From positions 25,989-89,988 of the forward strand of contig JBHHXN010000005.1 of the NCBI GenBank assembly GCA_046757025.1: 64,000 nt of DNA, written 5' to 3'. Each line of letters begins with the position of its first letter. The first letter of the stretch is position 1. A program made the position numbers and the translations under genes. Below the pieces are notes generated by a model, which made no database searches, was not told where the DNA came from, and saw only the letters and a program-made list of their open reading frames with translations. Positions 6,926-16,962 of this stretch are shown here, in pieces. The stretch comes from a bacterium (GTDB lineage: Bacteria; Zhuqueibacterota; Zhuqueibacteria; Oceanimicrobiales; Oceanimicrobiaceae).

Positions 6926-6969
6926 TTACATGAAGTGTAAAGATGTGGTTAAATTTAGTGGAGGAGTTG

Positions 6970-7251
6970 ATGAAAGGCTCAATGGATAAAAATCATCGCA
7001 TCATAAATCGTATCCTACTTAGCAATGACAATGGGGAACACTTGGTGAATGAGTTCGATGATGATGATGGGATTGAAGATTGGGAAGAAGAAGATTGGGA
7101 TGATGAAGTGGACGATCTGGAAGATGATTTCGATGACGACGATGATGACTTTGATGATGAAGACGATTTCGATGATTTCGAAGACGAAGAAGACTTATTT
7201 CATGATGAAGATTGGGAGGACGAGGACTGGGGTCAGGAAGATTGGAACTGA
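6970..7251 (+). CDS. Small, extremely acidic (Asp/Glu-rich) hypothetical protein
   Basis: GGAGGAG RBS before ATG 6970; C-terminal two thirds are almost only D/E with spaced W/F; fills the gap between plsC and the NUDIX gene. Confidence 0.65.
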   Translation: MKGSMDKNHRIINRILLSNDNGEHLVNEFDDDDGIEDWEEEDWDDEVDDLEDDFDDDDDDFDDEDDFDDFEDEEDLFHDEDWEDEDWGQEDWN

Positions 7252-9533: not shown

Positions 9534-12533
9534 TTGATGAATAACAAAATTAAAATTCTGCCACAGTCACTGAGCATTTCTATTGTGATTTTCGCCGCTT
9601 TGATTTTATACTCTGCCGACGGTGAAAAAGTAAATCTGCCAAAGTCTTCGCAGTTTTTACAAGCAGTTGAGCAAGGTCGGGCTAAAAGCAGTGCGCAGTA
9701 TCAATCTCACTCGATCTGCGGCAGCGCTCTTCTACCACCGGATACCATCCTGCTCAAAGATCCCAAATCGGGCTATCCAACCATCAACATAAGGATACCG
9801 CAGGATGACGTGGGCGATATCAGAACCTTCAATGCGGTGGATTTCACCAATGAAAATCAGGAAGTAAAACAAATCGTCGCCAGGGCGGAGAGCAAGGGCA
9901 GACATGCCTATATTTATGTGGACACCACCGCCACTTATAAAGCCGAAGATCTGGAGGATATTCTTGCGTTTTTCGATGACCACATTTATGATCGAAATAT
10001 CCAGGTATTTGGTTCGGAGCCCCGTCCAGGCATTGATGGCGATTTTTTAATCACCATATTATTTTTAGAGATTGAAACCCCGGAAAATATAACGGGGGAT
10101 ATCGCGGGTTATTTCTGGCCGGTAAATCAATCTCCAAAGAGTGAGAACGCCAATAGCAACGAAAGAGAAATGCTGTATGTCGATATCGGGCGTTTAACGC
10201 GTTTTGGCGTGGAAGATGTGTTGGGAACCATCGCGCACGAGATGCAGCATTTGATTCACTGGAATCACGATAGAAACGAAGAAACCTGGATAAATGAAGG
10301 GTTGGCTGAGTATGCCATTTTTGTGAATGAGCTGCCGTTGAACAATCCCCCCAATTTATTTTTAGACGATACCGATAACAACCTGACCAACTGGACTGGC
10401 CAGCCACGCGATTATGCTCGTTCCTTTCTCTGGTTTTTGTATTTGGCGGATCACTATGGCGGCAATTCGCTAATTCGAAATATAGTGGCAAATTCCGGCA
10501 AAGGCATGACCGCGCTGCAGTCCGTTTTGATTTCTTCTGGCATGGAAACCACCACCGACGAGATTTTTTCCAATTGGATTGTGGCTAATTATTTGGATGG
10601 CATTTCCGCTGAAAATGAACTGTATGAATATAAATCCATGCGGCTTGGGCCGCTTCGTCCAACCCAAATTTTTGGATTTTTACCAGTTAGCACGCGAGCA
10701 GCGAATGTCAATGCTTACGCCGCAGATTATTACCTGTTCAACGGTGGGGAAAATTTAGTTCTGCACATCGACGGTCCTAACCTCAACCCAAATTTTCAAG
10801 TTAAAGGTATCAAAATTTTCGCTCACGCACCGGCGCAAGTAATCGATATCCCGTTAGACAACGTGGGTCGGGGCGATTGGCCGCTGCCCGAATTCGGAAT
10901 TAGTTTTAATAAATTTGTGCTCGTTCCTTATTATTTACAAAAACCAACTTTTGGCGCGCTTGCCGATTACAAATTTGATGCGGAAGGAACAGGCGGACCT
11001 TCTGCGTTTGTGGATACGTTACAGTATCACGACACGGATAGCAGGTTGATCATCTCATTGGGCTTGCCTTCACCTTTGATCAATTCCAATCATTTCGACT
11101 CGTATGCCGTCCGTTTTACGCCCCACTCTGATGGCAATTTGTTGAGCATGGAATTTGCTTTATGGAATCGCATCGGTTCGGATGGGGCGGTGAGAATTTT
11201 CGTTTACACGGACAGCGGCGACAGTGTGGCCGTACCGCTGTCAAAAGTGGATTCCGTGGATGTGTCGGATGCCACCGGTACGCCGAGTACCATCACCTGG
11301 AACCGTGTGGATTTTAGCGGTAAAAATGTATCTGTAAAAAAGGGCGAAGATTTTCATCTGGCCATGGAATTTGTTGATCACAGCCTGGGCGATACGGTTT
11401 TCGCCATTCTGGATACAGCAAAAGTCTCCACCAACCGTTCCTCGGTTTATGTGCGGGAAGAACAACGGTGGGCGCATTTTGTAGGGGGATTTAATTTCTT
11501 CATGCGGGCTATGGTTTCCATTCCCGCGGATCCAACCGTGCCACAAATCACTTCTGGCATCCTGCAAAATCCCGTGTTCAATAAAGAGCTGGACATTTTT
11601 GCCATCAGCGAAAAGAGTCTCAATCCTTCCAGCGTGGAAGGTACGTTCACGTTGAACGATTCCAGCACCGTGCTGCATTTTGTGGCGGTGGATGATTCCA
11701 ACAAGGTCTTTATTGAGGATGATTTCCATCTATTCGGTGACGGTCCTGCTACATTGGTGGTTTCGGGCCGGCACGCGTATGGCACCATTGCGGGTACCGA
11801 TACCCTCAGCCTCAACGTGGATTTTATCAACTATCAAACCGCCGGTACCGTCACCAGCTCCGATGAATATTTTCAATTGCATCTGATTGAAAACACGCTG
11901 GTGGGAAATACCTATTTCACCACTTTTGCCATGGACGATAATTTTCAGCTAAATGAAAATGAGAAACTGTTAGCCAGTGATCTCATCCCCACCGGCCTGG
12001 CTTATACGGTCGCTCCAGACGGGATGACTTTTGAGAAAATGGTTGAGCTGCAAATTTATTATGCTGACAATGAAACGGCCATGCTCTCGGAAAACGATTT
12101 GGAGGTGGCTTTTTGGGATGACGGCAGATGGGTACTTTTGGGCGGGGAGTTGTATCGGGAGAAAAAATATATTTCTGTGCTGGTGAATCGCACGGGTAAT
12201 TATCAGTTGGTGGCTAAAAAATACCAGCAGCCGGAAAGTGAAAATCCCGCTCCAATCCGTTTTTATTTGCAGCAAAATTATCCCAATCCGTTCAACCCCA
12301 AAACAACCATCAAATTTGGGCTGCCCAGAACGGTTCACACCATTATTCGCATAATCAATTTAAAAGGACAAATCATTTCTGTGTTGGTGGATGAGGTTCA
12401 AAATGCCGGCGAGCACATCATCGAATGGGATGGCACCGACGACAAAAACGTTCGCGTGGCCAGCGGCGTTTATCTCTATCAAATTCAAGCGGATGATTTT
12501 GTGGATACCCGCAAACTGGTCCTGGTGAAATAA
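9534..12533 (+). CDS. Secreted zinc metallopeptidase (HExxH, M30-like) with C-terminal T9SS-type/FlgD-Ig sorting domain
   Basis: AHEMQHLIH...WINEGLAEY zinc motif; C-terminal LQQNYPNPFNP...WDG...VASGVYLYQI...KLVLVK. Confidence 0.8.
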   Translation: MMNNKIKILPQSLSISIVIFAALILYSADGEKVNLPKSSQFLQAVEQGRAKSSAQYQSHSICGSALLPPDTILLKDPKSGYPTINIRIPQDDVGDIRTFNAVDFTNENQEVKQIVARAESKGRHAYIYVDTTATYKAEDLEDILAFFDDHIYDRNIQVFGSEPRPGIDGDFLITILFLEIETPENITGDIAGYFWPVNQSPKSENANSNEREMLYVDIGRLTRFGVEDVLGTIAHEMQHLIHWNHDRNEETWINEGLAEYAIFVNELPLNNPPNLFLDDTDNNLTNWTGQPRDYARSFLWFLYLADHYGGNSLIRNIVANSGKGMTALQSVLISSGMETTTDEIFSNWIVANYLDGISAENELYEYKSMRLGPLRPTQIFGFLPVSTRAANVNAYAADYYLFNGGENLVLHIDGPNLNPNFQVKGIKIFAHAPAQVIDIPLDNVGRGDWPLPEFGISFNKFVLVPYYLQKPTFGALADYKFDAEGTGGPSAFVDTLQYHDTDSRLIISLGLPSPLINSNHFDSYAVRFTPHSDGNLLSMEFALWNRIGSDGAVRIFVYTDSGDSVAVPLSKVDSVDVSDATGTPSTITWNRVDFSGKNVSVKKGEDFHLAMEFVDHSLGDTVFAILDTAKVSTNRSSVYVREEQRWAHFVGGFNFFMRAMVSIPADPTVPQITSGILQNPVFNKELDIFAISEKSLNPSSVEGTFTLNDSSTVLHFVAVDDSNKVFIEDDFHLFGDGPATLVVSGRHAYGTIAGTDTLSLNVDFINYQTAGTVTSSDEYFQLHLIENTLVGNTYFTTFAMDDNFQLNENEKLLASDLIPTGLAYTVAPDGMTFEKMVELQIYYADNETAMLSENDLEVAFWDDGRWVLLGGELYREKKYISVLVNRTGNYQLVAKKYQQPESENPAPIRFYLQQNYPNPFNPKTTIKFGLPRTVHTIIRIINLKGQIISVLVDEVQNAGEHIIEWDGTDDKNVRVASGVYLYQIQADDFVDTRKLVLVK

Positions 12534-12543
12534 ACTGAGGTTT

Positions 12544-13143
12544 ATGATGTCGATCAAGCTGTTCCGCCATTTTATCATCGGATTCGCCACACTATTTTTG
12601 CTTGCTCATTGCAGCGAGCAGGGGGTATCGCCAAATTTAAAGGAGGCCAGCGAATTGACCGCAGAAGGCTGGCAGGCGTTTGAGAATGGCGAATACGGGA
12701 TGGCAGCCGCCAAGTTTGATTCAGCCATCCAGTCCGATGCAAATTTTGTGGATGCCTACAACGGCGCCGGTTGGGCTTACAGCCGGCTTGAGGAATTTAA
12801 TCTGGCGCTGAATAAATTTGAAACCGCTTTGAGTAAGACCGCCGATTTGATCGAAGCGCAAGCAGGTACGGTTTTGCTGTTCCACGTTTTGAATCGATTT
12901 GAGGAAGCCATTGAGGCCGCTCTGGCGCTTTTAGAAGTGGCGCCCAACTTTATGTTTTCGCATGACCCCGCCATCGATTCGTTGGACATTCGAATCACCC
13001 TGGCCATCAGCTTTTATTCAGTGGGCGACTTTGCCCGTTCCGCTGGGCAGATGGATATCATCGATCCGGACAATAAACCGCACTCTACTGAGCCGGACGG
13101 CTTGATTAAAGAAATTATGCGCTTTTTCGGGTTGATTCGATAA
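12544..13143 (+). CDS. TPR-repeat lipoprotein
   Basis: Lipobox-like LAHC; AYNGAGWAY and further TPR repeats. Confidence 0.8.
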   Translation: MMSIKLFRHFIIGFATLFLLAHCSEQGVSPNLKEASELTAEGWQAFENGEYGMAAAKFDSAIQSDANFVDAYNGAGWAYSRLEEFNLALNKFETALSKTADLIEAQAGTVLLFHVLNRFEEAIEAALALLEVAPNFMFSHDPAIDSLDIRITLAISFYSVGDFARSAGQMDIIDPDNKPHSTEPDGLIKEIMRFFGLIR

Positions 13144-13271
13144 CGGCCCGCATAACCGGCGCTGCCATTCAGGTCACGTAACTTGCATAAAAGACATAAC
13201 TTGCGGCAATGCTCCAAACTTAAAAATTACGCCAGAATGGCAGCGTCCGAGTTATAATGCGGTTGTTAGGT
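13138..13271 (-). mobile_element. Integron attC recombination site
   Basis: Minus strand: R'' ACCTAAC, arm CGCAT..TAAC-T-CGG-A-CGCTGCCATTC pairing with GAATGGCAGCG-CCG-GTTATGCG (two extrahelical bases), R' GTTATCG; 134 bp; directly downstream of the 13290-14120 gene. Confidence 0.85.
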
Positions 13272-13289
13272 GTTAAATTCATGTTCCAC

Positions 13290-14120
13290 TTACAAAGGGA
13301 CATTCTGCTTTATCTCCTCATACCGCCGTGTAGCAAGCTCTGAAGGCTCGCCTTTCTTGCAAAAAGATAGTTGAGCAAGGCTTCTATGTGGCCGTTCGAC
13401 TACGATTCTGCCGCCCTCATCCAACTTGGAGTCCAATGCGCTCAATGCTTCTAAAAATCGTTTATCCTCTTTCGCATAATTATAAAAAGATAGTACATAA
13501 ACATAATAGAAGAGATTATACCGTAGGAATGGATACTCAACTTGCATGAACAGTGTACCGATTCCGAAGTGACAGGGTCCAATCGGTCGCTTCACCATCC
13601 AGTGGTCAAGCAGCGACTCTACTGCCCGGTCTAGAGCTGGATTCTTGTTGAGATGTTCCGTAAAGCGAAACGCATCCAAGACAAAAATTGTGACACCGGG
13701 ATTTGAGAATTCTGTTTCTGGTCCTCGTCCGCCTGAGAACTTTTTACAGCGCCAGCCACCGTCGTTGTGTTGAATTTCAAACAAATGATCGAATGTCCGT
13801 TGAAGTTTCCGGTCTTTAGACATGCCGAATCGACATAGAACTCTGATCGCATTTGCTGTATGGCACGGATAGATCGCTCCTCTTGGTGCAACTCGGAACC
13901 GGCCATCGTCTCGCCAAGTATCCAGAATCTGCTGGAGAGCGCCTTTAACTGCCTCGTGAGTACGAGCAACTTGTAGTTCATGGAGAATCAAGGGAGACTC
14001 AAGCGTGCTAAAGGGAGTACCAACTCCGATGCGGCCGTCTACACTGGCCCAATAATCACCACCATTTTGATGCCGTTTGGCAAGGATGGCTTCGATATCA
14101 GTGATGTGCTTCTTACTCAA
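13290..14120 (-). CDS. Prenyltransferase/squalene-oxidase repeat-like protein (gene cassette cargo)
   Basis: QHNDGGWRC QW-like motif, YPCHTA, QVEYPF..YNL..YVYVLS; followed by attC; short leader. Confidence 0.7.
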   Translation of the reverse strand: MSKKHITDIEAILAKRHQNGGDYWASVDGRIGVGTPFSTLESPLILHELQVARTHEAVKGALQQILDTWRDDGRFRVAPRGAIYPCHTANAIRVLCRFGMSKDRKLQRTFDHLFEIQHNDGGWRCKKFSGGRGPETEFSNPGVTIFVLDAFRFTEHLNKNPALDRAVESLLDHWMVKRPIGPCHFGIGTLFMQVEYPFLRYNLFYYVYVLSFYNYAKEDKRFLEALSALDSKLDEGGRIVVERPHRSLAQLSFCKKGEPSELATRRYEEIKQNVPL

Positions 14121-14367
14121 GATTTGATATCCTCACATCATTTTATCGTTTCGTTGCCACCTAGTACCGTTTCTGGAATTCATGCAATATGTAAGGATCT
14201 CCAGAAACTGGATAACACCAATATATTTAATGTACTATCAAAATTCAATAAAAATATGGCTTCATATAAAAAACGTGAGATTCCTGCACAGGAAACACCC
14301 CTTTATCTTGTACTATTTAATATTTTTCGCGAAGAGGTATCGATCAAAATCAGTTTCGCAATTCTTG

Positions 14368-14404
14368 AAAAAAAAAGGCGCCAATCCTGTTATGGCGCCT
14401 TTTT
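14368..14404. terminator. Bidirectional intrinsic terminator downstream of nrdJ
   Basis: A9-GGCGCCA-loop-TGGCGCC-T5. Confidence 0.75.
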
Positions 14405-14505
14405 GTACTTCACCCACCGTGCCTAAATAATCTTTACCGCTGTGTATTTAGAATATCTGACTTAGTCCTTTACAGATTTTTCACGATGGGAACGCCTTGC
14501 GCTCC

Positions 14506-16962
14506 TCAACATTTTGACCAGCCACAGTGGTAGCAGGTCATGCAGCCGGTTTCATGTGTCACCGGTGCACCGCAGTCCGGACAGGTCAATATTTCATATC
14601 CGCTCAGGCCTTGGTCCGGCGTTTTTTTTTGCAGGGTGGACGATTCGTCTTGCTTGGCCGCGGTCGTTTCTACTGACTTTTTAAGCTGGCCTTTGCGAAT
14701 TAAGTAGCGTTCGAGCGCCTTGCCGATGGCGTCCGGTGTGGACAAAATTTGTTCGCCGTTTTCCCAGATCGGCGCCGGCCCGGAAATCCCTTTTAACTGA
14801 CTGATGATTTCTTTGGGATCGATGGAGGCACGCAGGGCCAGCGAAATCAGCCGGCTGATGGCTTCAGTTTGGGCAGCGGCATTGCCGCCGGCTTTACCGA
14901 TGTTTGAAAAAACTTCGCACAGCCCATCCTCGTCCTCGTTGATAGTCACATAAAGGTTGCCTTCGCCGGTGCGGATGCGTTCGGTGATGCCGGTGGTGAT
15001 TTTCGATCGTGTGCGGGGGTGGAACCCGTTTTGATCGACATTTTTCAATTTGGGTTTGTCGGTTTTTAAAATCCCTTCCCGGCTACCTTCACGATACACG
15101 GTGATGCCTTTCAAGCCGGCTTTATAGGCGGTGATATAAATATCCGCCACGGCATTGACGTCGATGTCCTCCGGCAGGTTCACAGTGGAAGACACGCTGC
15201 TGTCCACGTATTTTTGAATGGCGCCCTGCATTTTGACGCGAAAATAGGGATCGATGTCGTGGGCGGTCACCACGTAGTCTGGCAGATTCTCGTCGCTTCC
15301 GAACAGCCTTTTGATCAGGGGATGGTAAACTTTGTATTCGCGGAAGGATTCGCCGTCGTCGTTTTTGACGCGGCGCGTGTAACTGGTGCAGAAAATCGGC
15401 TCGATGCCCGAGCTGGTTTCCGCCACGATGGAACCGGTGCCCACCGGCGGCACGGTCAACAGCGTGCTGTTGCGAATACCGTATTTTTTGATCTTATCTT
15501 TGAGATTTTTCGGCAGCGTCTTGATAAATTTGCTTTTACTGAATTCTTTCCAGTCAAACAATGGAAACGCGCCTTTTTCCGTTGCCAGCTCGATGGAGGT
15601 TTCATAGCAGGTATCGCGAATGGTTTTCATGATTTTTTCGGTCATTTTCAGCGCTTCTTTGGAGTCGTACTTGATCTTCATGAGCACGAGGGCATCTCCC
15701 AGTCCGGTGATGCCAACCCCAACCCGGCGGTCGGATGCCACAGCCCGGCTGATTTTGCTTGAGGCGTGGTTGTTCATATTGTAATCGATCACGTTGTCCA
15801 TAAAGCGCGTGGCGATGCGTGTGTACTCTCGTAATTCATCAAAGTCCAAAACGCCGTTTTCATCGATAAATTTTGCTAAATTGAGATTGCCCAGATTACA
15901 AGCCGTGAAAGCGGCCAGCGGCTGTTCGCCGCACGGATTGGTACTGGAAAGGGGATTCGCATATTCCACGTTGTGGTAATCTTTCATGGTATCCCAGAAG
16001 ATGATGCCTGGTTCCGCGGAAGCATGCGCGCTGGCGATGATTTTATCCCACAGTTCTTTCGCCCGTACGGTTTTGTACACTTTCACGGGTTGGTCGGCAT
16101 TTTGTCCCGGCACACACGGCCACTTCAGTTGGAATTCTTTGTCTTGCAGCATGGCGTTCATAAACTCGTGCGTCAGCAAAACACTGATGTTGGCATATTT
16201 TACTTTTTGCCGATTGGAATCGTTTTTGATGGCGATGAATTTTTCGACGTCGGGATGATCCACGCGAATGGTCAACATCAGTGCGCCGCGCCGGCCGGCC
16301 TGGGACACGGTGTTGGTGCTTTCGCTCAACAGGTTCATAAACGCTGTGGCGCCCGGTGAGTGGTCCACGGTGGCGTTCACAGAGGCGCCGCTGGGACGCA
16401 AAATCGACAGGTCGGTGCCCACACCGCCGCCGGTGCGATAAACCATGGCCGATTCTGTCAAGCAGGTGTAAATTCCTTCCAGGCTGTCTTCCTCGATGGG
16501 AATGACGTAACAGTTGGAAAGAGTGGGCCTTCGTCGGGCGTCATCCCGACCCGCACCGTGTAAAATACGGCCGCCGGGCAAAAATTTGAATTCGTAGAGT
16601 ATTTCAAAAAATTTTTTAAACCAATGGTCCTGGTCTTTTTCTATGGATGAAATAGCCCGGGCCACGCGGTACCAAAGGTGCAGCGGTCCGGTTTCTTTTG
16701 GCGCCAGATATTTGGCTTTCAGTACATCGGAAGCGAGCTGGTTTTCAGGATAGTAGGTTTTTGAATCTGTGGCTCTTTTTAGAGTCTTTTCTTTATATTT
16801 ACCTTTGAATTCCTGTTTGATCTTTTTGGCCAGTTCCGCCGCGCTCAAGAAATTAAATTTAGCAGATTCACCTGATTTTTCTACCAGACTGTTGTTATTT
16901 CCATTTGAATTCCCTGGATCGGTATTTAGAGCTTTAATATCAAACTGACTATTCGCATCCAT
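14506..16962 (-). CDS. nrdJ: Adenosylcobalamin-dependent class II ribonucleotide reductase with C-terminal TSCPD domain and Zn ribbon
   Basis: TLSNC, QAGRRGALM, TNPCGEQPL, ACNLG, PVGT, GIEP, KGITVYR; C-terminal CPDCG...CMTC.HCGWSKC. Confidence 0.95.
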   Translation of the reverse strand: MDANSQFDIKALNTDPGNSNGNNNSLVEKSGESAKFNFLSAAELAKKIKQEFKGKYKEKTLKRATDSKTYYPENQLASDVLKAKYLAPKETGPLHLWYRVARAISSIEKDQDHWFKKFFEILYEFKFLPGGRILHGAGRDDARRRPTLSNCYVIPIEEDSLEGIYTCLTESAMVYRTGGGVGTDLSILRPSGASVNATVDHSPGATAFMNLLSESTNTVSQAGRRGALMLTIRVDHPDVEKFIAIKNDSNRQKVKYANISVLLTHEFMNAMLQDKEFQLKWPCVPGQNADQPVKVYKTVRAKELWDKIIASAHASAEPGIIFWDTMKDYHNVEYANPLSSTNPCGEQPLAAFTACNLGNLNLAKFIDENGVLDFDELREYTRIATRFMDNVIDYNMNNHASSKISRAVASDRRVGVGITGLGDALVLMKIKYDSKEALKMTEKIMKTIRDTCYETSIELATEKGAFPLFDWKEFSKSKFIKTLPKNLKDKIKKYGIRNSTLLTVPPVGTGSIVAETSSGIEPIFCTSYTRRVKNDDGESFREYKVYHPLIKRLFGSDENLPDYVVTAHDIDPYFRVKMQGAIQKYVDSSVSSTVNLPEDIDVNAVADIYITAYKAGLKGITVYREGSREGILKTDKPKLKNVDQNGFHPRTRSKITTGITERIRTGEGNLYVTINEDEDGLCEVFSNIGKAGGNAAAQTEAISRLISLALRASIDPKEIISQLKGISGPAPIWENGEQILSTPDAIGKALERYLIRKGQLKKSVETTAAKQDESSTLQKKTPDQGLSGYEILTCPDCGAPVTHETGCMTCYHCGWSKC

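Follow-up and report, generated by a model that had tools for sequence, protein, structure and literature searches.

A single integron cassette beside a probable attI relic in a Zhuqueibacterota genome

How does a lone gene cassette come to lie at the end of a host gene, with no integrase beside it? On the origin of integrase-less cassettes, the available parts of published surveys report no intI pseudogene near 95% of CALINs, and the published proposal for isolated cassettes is insertion at an attG site. SALINs, which by definition have no other att site nearby, are explained by such attC × attG insertion in the accessible portion of Loot et al. (10.1101/2022.09.11.507474).

Here, we analyze a single cassette in a 64,000-nucleotide stretch of DNA (the window) from a member of the Oceanimicrobiaceae (genome G000). 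The original prediction was of a cassette captured in the core chromosome by insertion at a non-att secondary site. We find it probable (roughly 0.85) that the locus is a decayed single-cassette integron, in which a genuine cassette is joined to a broken attI-type platform (Table 1).

Table 1. Features of the cassette locus and its host flanks (window positions).
Feature	Position	Strand	Remarks
TPR-repeat gene (host)	12544-13143	+	Stop codon 13141-13143 is the TTA of the attC R' box
attC	13138-13271	-	R'' ACCTAAC 13265-13271; L'' region 13247-13259; L' 13151-13157; R' GTTATCG 13138-13144; G|TT crossover between 13144 and 13143
Cassette gene	13290-14120	-	276 aa, intact ORF; predicted prenyltransferase/squalene-cyclase-like helical protein
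Cassette 5' end, TAGGTG	14158-14163	-	Crossover G|T missing
Platform 3' part	14164-14219	-	10-bp end deletion (spacer and G|T gone); 57-bp internal deletion between two 8-bp direct repeats
Platform 5' part	14220-14260	-	Pc-like promoter facing the cassette
Probable long-form intI 5' vestige	14258-14309	+	Covers about codons 14-30 and runs divergently from the cassette; a ~138-bp deletion separates it from the intact arrangement and joins it to the platform
Inverted repeat, terminator-like	14372-14404		12-bp perfect repeat with A/T tails on the nrdJ side; absent from the terminator-scan output
nrdJ (host)	14506-16962	-	B12-dependent ribonucleotide reductase; other host flank

The cassette, its attC site and its cargo

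The cassette comprises a single ORF and, behind it in the same orientation, an attC that has R'' (AAC) and R' (GTT) and forms a hairpin on its bottom strand. ORF calling and a check of the sequence placed the gene, the attC boxes, and the motif CTAGGTG where they had been predicted. For the attC bottom strand, the predicted structure is a single long hairpin (-27 kcal/mol, z = -3.58), which 1 of 200 shuffles equaled in stability. A hairpin heuristic gave the site a score of 25.1, against a best of 15.7 across three Markov-simulated windows. Furthermore, a covariance model, trained on 14 attC-like sites that the heuristic had picked in other genomes (none from G000), matched 13138-13267 with 40.8 bits (E = 5.7e-7). 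The fold and the model match both indicate a genuine attC, as originally proposed. This was the sole match in the 64-kb window; the cassette of ~1.02 kb is part of no array there. In a by-eye comparison with family members, L' is intact, while L'' departs from the regular form in a bulge of 3 nt and, beyond the usual T, one further bulge of 1 nt; these are the defects that had been suspected in L''. A search of Rfam with 12900-14600 returned five weak matches, none close to the gathering score.

At its other end, the cassette begins with TAGGTG, which is complementary to R''. Homologous cassettes (L065, L205, and L173) open with G|TTAGGTGGC or close to it, and TAGGTG can thus be read as the cassette's own first bases.

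The covariance model made 15 matches on 15 contigs of G000 (150 of 1265 candidates scored), a search that the original prediction had proposed. The sites besides the one in the window, at least 14 in number and of the same ~128-bp family, are mostly single, and some are within host gene clusters; the contigs that carry them include C51, C71, C93, C101, C58, C251, and C276. The hairpin heuristic was discarded as a genome-wide attC finder: its 40 matches were mostly unrelated palindromic repeats, and at a strict threshold it found few attCs near homologues of the cargo. In its place we used the covariance model along with a local scan. Palindromic dispersed repeats of two families mimic attC in the hairpin scan (G000 contigs C253, C186, C1, C122, C79, C8, C65, C110, and C273).

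The cargo protein resembles the helical barrels of squalene-hopene cyclases and prenyltransferases in its weak profile matches around a QxxDGGW motif and in its confident, all-helical structure model (pLDDT 86). It differs from them in being a single 276-aa domain whose scores fall below all curated cut-offs. All three sequence variants of the gene seen in other sequencing runs are synonymous. Its GC content (47.1%, against 47.2% for the genome) carries no compositional signal.

Among 4677 candidates, 3663 were homologous to the cargo at E <= 0.001, and the best 120 of these share 68-86% identity with it across many phyla. We tallied attC-like sites directly 3' of the homologues at 160 fetched loci, which include duplicates. 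Such a site follows 8 of the 44 loci with room for one at identities of at least 68%, compared with 3 of 383 random control windows, and 4 of 102 loci at lower identity. By this tally, the cargo is a known passenger of integron cassettes, and the majority of its homologues evidently lie outside cassettes.

The platform upstream of the cassette

The ~110 bp upstream of the cassette form a promoter-like/attI platform. Its deletions (Table 1) were read from an alignment with the copies on contigs C18 and C145 of G000, with copies from genome G012, and with sites beside intact IntI genes. Because the 10-bp deletion took the attI spacer and the G|T, the cassette's first bases now form part of CTAGGTG (14158-14164), the C of which is 44 bp from the cassette start codon. 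This motif, first interpreted as a one-base variant of TTAGGTG, is in fact the joint of that deletion.

Promoter-like hexamers at 14248-14243 and 14225-14220, separated by a 17-bp spacer, face the cassette. By itself this promoter call is at chance level (one found in the scan versus 1.5 expected in shuffles); the -10 region is conserved in 19 aligned platform copies. Beyond the promoter, 14258-14309 is the window's best match to a DNA profile of intI 5' ends that was built without G000 (E = 0.0038; not significant genome-wide, E = 0.36). A protein-level search with these positions gave no significant match. With its expected place and direction, this segment is a probable intI vestige.

The platform recurs on contigs C18, C145, and C227 of G000, which also has the attI motif on C80, and is present in 6 of 20 genomes of the family. 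A third repeat, besides the two palindromic families, is inserted in the C145 copy. Nineteen full copies align over ~170-300 bp, close with a box, 5 bp, and G|TT, and then diverge into different genes; several have a gene and an attC behind them. Thus, conservation up to G|TT and a variable cassette thereafter, the pattern looked for in an attI, is found across the 19 aligned copies, with the G|T deleted in the window copy. Platforms sit at many unrelated loci, usually before a different gene each. With up to two mismatches, the 23-base end motif occurs in 20 of 167 genomes of the phylum, while a reversed control occurs in none. G012 has 15 copies, spread over 13 contigs; G128 has 5 and G000 has 3. 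Counts were restricted to two mismatches since at four mismatches the motif does no better than the reversed control in G000 (32 versus 28).

Within-genome identity of the platforms is 0.88 in G128 (six pairs) and 0.93 in G018 (one pair), compared with ~0.55 between genomes. Copies in these two genomes are far more alike than copies between genomes, which indicates that they have multiplied within lineages. Within- and between-genome identities are similar (0.73-0.84) for G000, G007, G012, and G013, and the copies within G097 and within G134 are divergent (0.65 and 0.59, respectively). All intI stubs observed at platforms end within ~45 codons, and those at the platforms on G012:C44 and G000:C18 lie at the same position as the window vestige.

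Some loci show platforms in other arrangements. In L275 (G012:C54:20500-32000), platforms at 2216, 3476, and 8042 each follow the same ~290-bp piece, in which the 3' end of a convergent ABC-permease-like gene is fused to intI at codon ~19. Each piece starts at the same G|TT junction behind an attC or an attC 3' half, and together they look like a platform unit bounded by crossover sites. Seven loci (L257, L258, L259, L263, L264, L269, and L260) retain the last ~65-95 bp of the platform only, several of them beginning at a G|TT inside it, which may be a further entry point for cassettes. In L045 (G012:C243), the 3' half of a platform points to a short-type intI ~430 bp downstream in the same direction.

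Long-form integrases and a putative attI

The probable intI vestige would belong to a long form of IntI. This ~450-aa protein scores above the TIGR02249 cut-off (346-366 bits versus 265) and has ~120 extra N-terminal residues that match nothing in Pfam. It was found in 11 of the 167 phylum genomes and in neither G000 nor G012. At 7 of the 11 long-form loci, the end motif is found 102-334 bp upstream of intI, on the strand opposite to that gene, which is the cassette strand; in the other orientation, it is upstream of none of the 11. The motif pattern was widened after these loci had been seen, and a split locus in G049 was excluded. Of the four loci that lack the motif, one is at a contig edge and two have no intI start or carry an insert. 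G122 shows the complete order of intI, attI motif, gene, and attC. Since the motif is divergently upstream of long-form intI genes and occurs in this order in G122, we read it as the putative attI of the long-form family.

In attI1-type sites, an L box and an R box are separated by a 5-bp spacer, with direct repeats (DR1/DR2) upstream. The platform motif is similar in having a 7-bp RYYYAAC-like box, a 5-bp spacer, G|TT, upstream GTT-containing repeats, and a divergent intI. Unlike attI1, it has an unrelated sequence and accompanies the ~450-aa IntI.

Alternatively, the platform might be no attI but a miniature mobile element or dispersed repeat that is often found in front of cassettes. It is multicopy and hairpin-rich and mostly has no integrase gene, all of which fit such an element. 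Its left ends, however, are ragged, with no terminal inverted repeats observed; it ends at G|TT exactly where the variable genes start, and it lies divergently upstream of intact IntI genes, with several copies retaining the first intI codons. We regard this explanation as very improbable and continue to read the motif as an attI.

In L279 (G018:C38:3474-7109), an intact long-form IntI has a shorter platform, with a gene of the phage-integrase family and an IS91-like transposase after the G|TT. A gene that looks IS91-like also follows the attI in L341. In L338 (G097:C1:496500-516400), a ~10-kb block of small genes separates the long-form IntI from two attI motifs, and a third motif is on another contig.

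The prediction of no integrase nearby extends to the whole assembly, which is 94.8% complete: no G000 sequence scored above the TIGR02249 cut-off. Recombinase-like sequences in G000 are XerD-like (C96), a recombinase fragment (C300), and a 5' remnant of a short-type intI (C47). This last (G000:C47:9718-9963, minus strand) contains a stop and is fused to the end of a small ORF of a 113-aa type. An intact intI beside an attI was found nowhere in G000, and at the window locus there is only the ~50-bp probable vestige.

Host flanks, arrival and decay of the locus

A search of 40 relatives gave orthologues of the TPR gene in 6, with 48-60% identity. No match to the cargo, platform, or attC follows the TPR stop in any of the five relatives with sequence there, a comparison that the original prediction had proposed. 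In G013 and G015, nrdJ comes after the TPR gene. The orthologues in G007 and G017 share the same last three codons; the TTA bases of R' are thus host-derived, which upholds the prediction that R' borrows them from the host stop codon.

The neighborhood of the TPR gene shows further features. After the TPR stop, G007 (L025) and G017 (L026) contain remains of another module, of the short-IntI type: directly behind the stop lies a small ORF of 113 aa, whole or as a remnant, and G017 also has an IntI fragment. This small ORF flanks short-type intI in at least eight loci of the family. It seems that integron debris has gathered more than once at the 3' end of the TPR gene. The ORF immediately preceding that gene (window 9534-12533, plus strand) encodes a protein of 999 aa that has a protease-like HExxH region and a secretion tail at its C terminus, and the pair is conserved in six relatives. 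A 102-aa, very acidic, D/E/F-rich ORF lies at 6943-7251 (plus strand).

The locus resembles a SALIN, and would be called one by a tool, in having a single attC, no intact integrase nearby, and a GWT at the crossover in host DNA. It differs in having an attI relic and a probable intI stub before the cassette and in lacking CRGM (SALINs as described in the available part of the literature). The attI relic adjoining the cassette means that the absence of any other att site, by which SALINs are defined, does not hold here. Nor is the left flank host DNA contiguous with the right flank. Insertion of a lone cassette by IntI at an attG at the stop codon, with host intergenic DNA upstream, would agree with the single attC, the lack of an intact intI in the assembly, and the G|TT at the host stop codon, and SALINs formed that way are documented in the accessible literature. 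It would also agree with the other 14 attC matches in G000, none of which has an intact attI motif upstream; many are near contig ends with little upstream sequence, and the same scan also misses the window's own relic. True attG insertions may thus coexist in this genome. At the window locus, however, attG insertion requires host post-stop DNA left of the cassette, where there is instead a multicopy attI platform that is absent from all five relatives. This makes insertion at a non-att site extremely improbable, and of the original proposal of a solitary cassette in the core chromosome, the single attC, the lack of an array, and the absence of an intact integrase stand, while the repeated attI-type platform and the probable intI vestige tell against ordinary host DNA upstream of a solitary cassette.

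An assembly chimera across the repeated platform is the least credible explanation. The contigs of all four sequencing runs break at 14214-14241, and none bridges this repeat by 31 nucleotides on both sides. The cassette-platform and attC-TPR joints nevertheless lie inside single contigs in all four runs (one study; one run is possibly the source), with similar depth on both sides. The TPR-nrdJ order is, moreover, conserved in G013 and G015, and the attI relic beside the cassette would hold even with a false join. No empty allele was seen in the contigs of these four runs, contigs being prone to drop rare variants, nor did any close relative turn up whose allele is empty or intact.

We therefore return to the decayed integron. 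A long-form IntI would have inserted the cassette at the attI through the standard attC × attI reaction, behind the Pc-like promoter. Alignment shows that three deletions then took out the start of intI, a segment inside the platform, and the crossover of the attI. The cassette is likely now fixed, as had been suggested, given an inactivated attI, an irregular L'', and an assembly that contains no intact intI, and it may be transcribed from the retained promoter.

The right junction, between the attC G and the host stop codon, is the only one that looks like a secondary-site event, and it is the weakest step of this reconstruction. IntI might have recombined an att site with the host GTT at the stop, when the unit arrived or when distal cassettes were deleted. 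Alternatively, the junction might come from a deletion across the TTA common to both sides, in line with the deletions elsewhere at the locus. The GTT at the crossover is present, and CRGM at +6 to +9 is absent, although CRGM was defined for IntI1 in Escherichia coli and may not apply here. About 16% of TAA triplets in G000 precede a C, so a GTT at a stop codon is not rare. At four loci (L277:12001-12030, L343:979-1001, L275, and window 13143), a convergent host gene stops 0-50 bp away from the final attC of a platform-led array, an anecdotal observation.

One variant of arrival, compatible with the decayed integron, is that the intI stub, promoter, attI, cassette, and attC were excised together as one IntI circle and integrated through the attC at the host GTT, which would also be the route by which platforms are copied. 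In keeping with this, the right junction is a G|TT within host DNA, the G128 and G018 copies are more alike than copies from different genomes, the intI stubs all stop short, and three G012:C54 units begin at one G|TT junction behind attC-type ends. For IntI1, secondary-site recombination and imprecise excision at nearby genomic sites have been shown experimentally in the part of that study available (10.1101/2022.09.11.507474). Against it, the left boundary in the window shows no G|TT clearly, the right junction departs from the CRGM hotspot motif at +6 to +9, and the left ends of the platforms are staggered. We compared 27 left-end rows, among them 2 intact genes, 2 rows that align with a sister copy along their whole length, and some that internal deletions have truncated. 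A[AT]C was in register in 4 of the 27, no enrichment over the background of 0.33. IntI-mediated copying thus cannot be claimed, and we consider arrival as a circle unlikely.

Whatever the route, the promoter-attI platform may itself have been copied around the chromosome, yielding up to 15 landing pads per genome that have no integrase of their own and receive different cassettes from one acting in trans. We propose this tentatively, at somewhat less than even odds. An attI is recognized by its cognate integrase only, according to the accessible text of PMC2095811, and such pads would thus depend on a long-form IntI acting in trans.

Integrase loss is itself well known. About 43% of intI genes are predicted to be inactive (PMC3108266, available part), and the accessible text of Cury et al. 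(2016, PMC4889954) gives cassettes remaining after integrase loss as one origin of CALINs (their origin iii) and reports pseudogenes matching the IntI C-terminal profile near 15 of 279 CALINs. The window locus would be similar in being a cassette that remained after integrase loss. The platform relics differ from those CALINs in keeping an attI and at most ~45 N-terminal codons, and in being many per genome; searches with the IntI C-terminal profile would thus miss them. Similarly, inactivated chromosomal integrons of Xanthomonas have a truncated or deleted intI and frozen arrays, as far as the available part of that report shows (10.1101/2025.06.18.660453). There, intI is at one ancestral locus beside ilvD, whereas the platforms described here are at many unrelated loci, as the dispersal of the motif in G012 illustrates. 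The mostly open-access literature that we searched contains no description of the long-form IntI or of multicopy, integrase-less attI platforms; it is their genome-wide multiplicity, and not integrase loss, that is without description there.

Taken singly, the locus would be an ordinary dead integron. It nevertheless looks like a textbook SALIN while containing a relic attI that is invisible to C-terminal IntI searches and to class 1-3 attI libraries, and it yields a concrete, putative attI motif for an uncharacterized ~450-aa IntI. If platforms do act as landing pads, then the window locus would be one such pad, later locked by deletion, and a hidden attI would mark many SALINs and small CALINs as relics of platforms rather than attG insertions.
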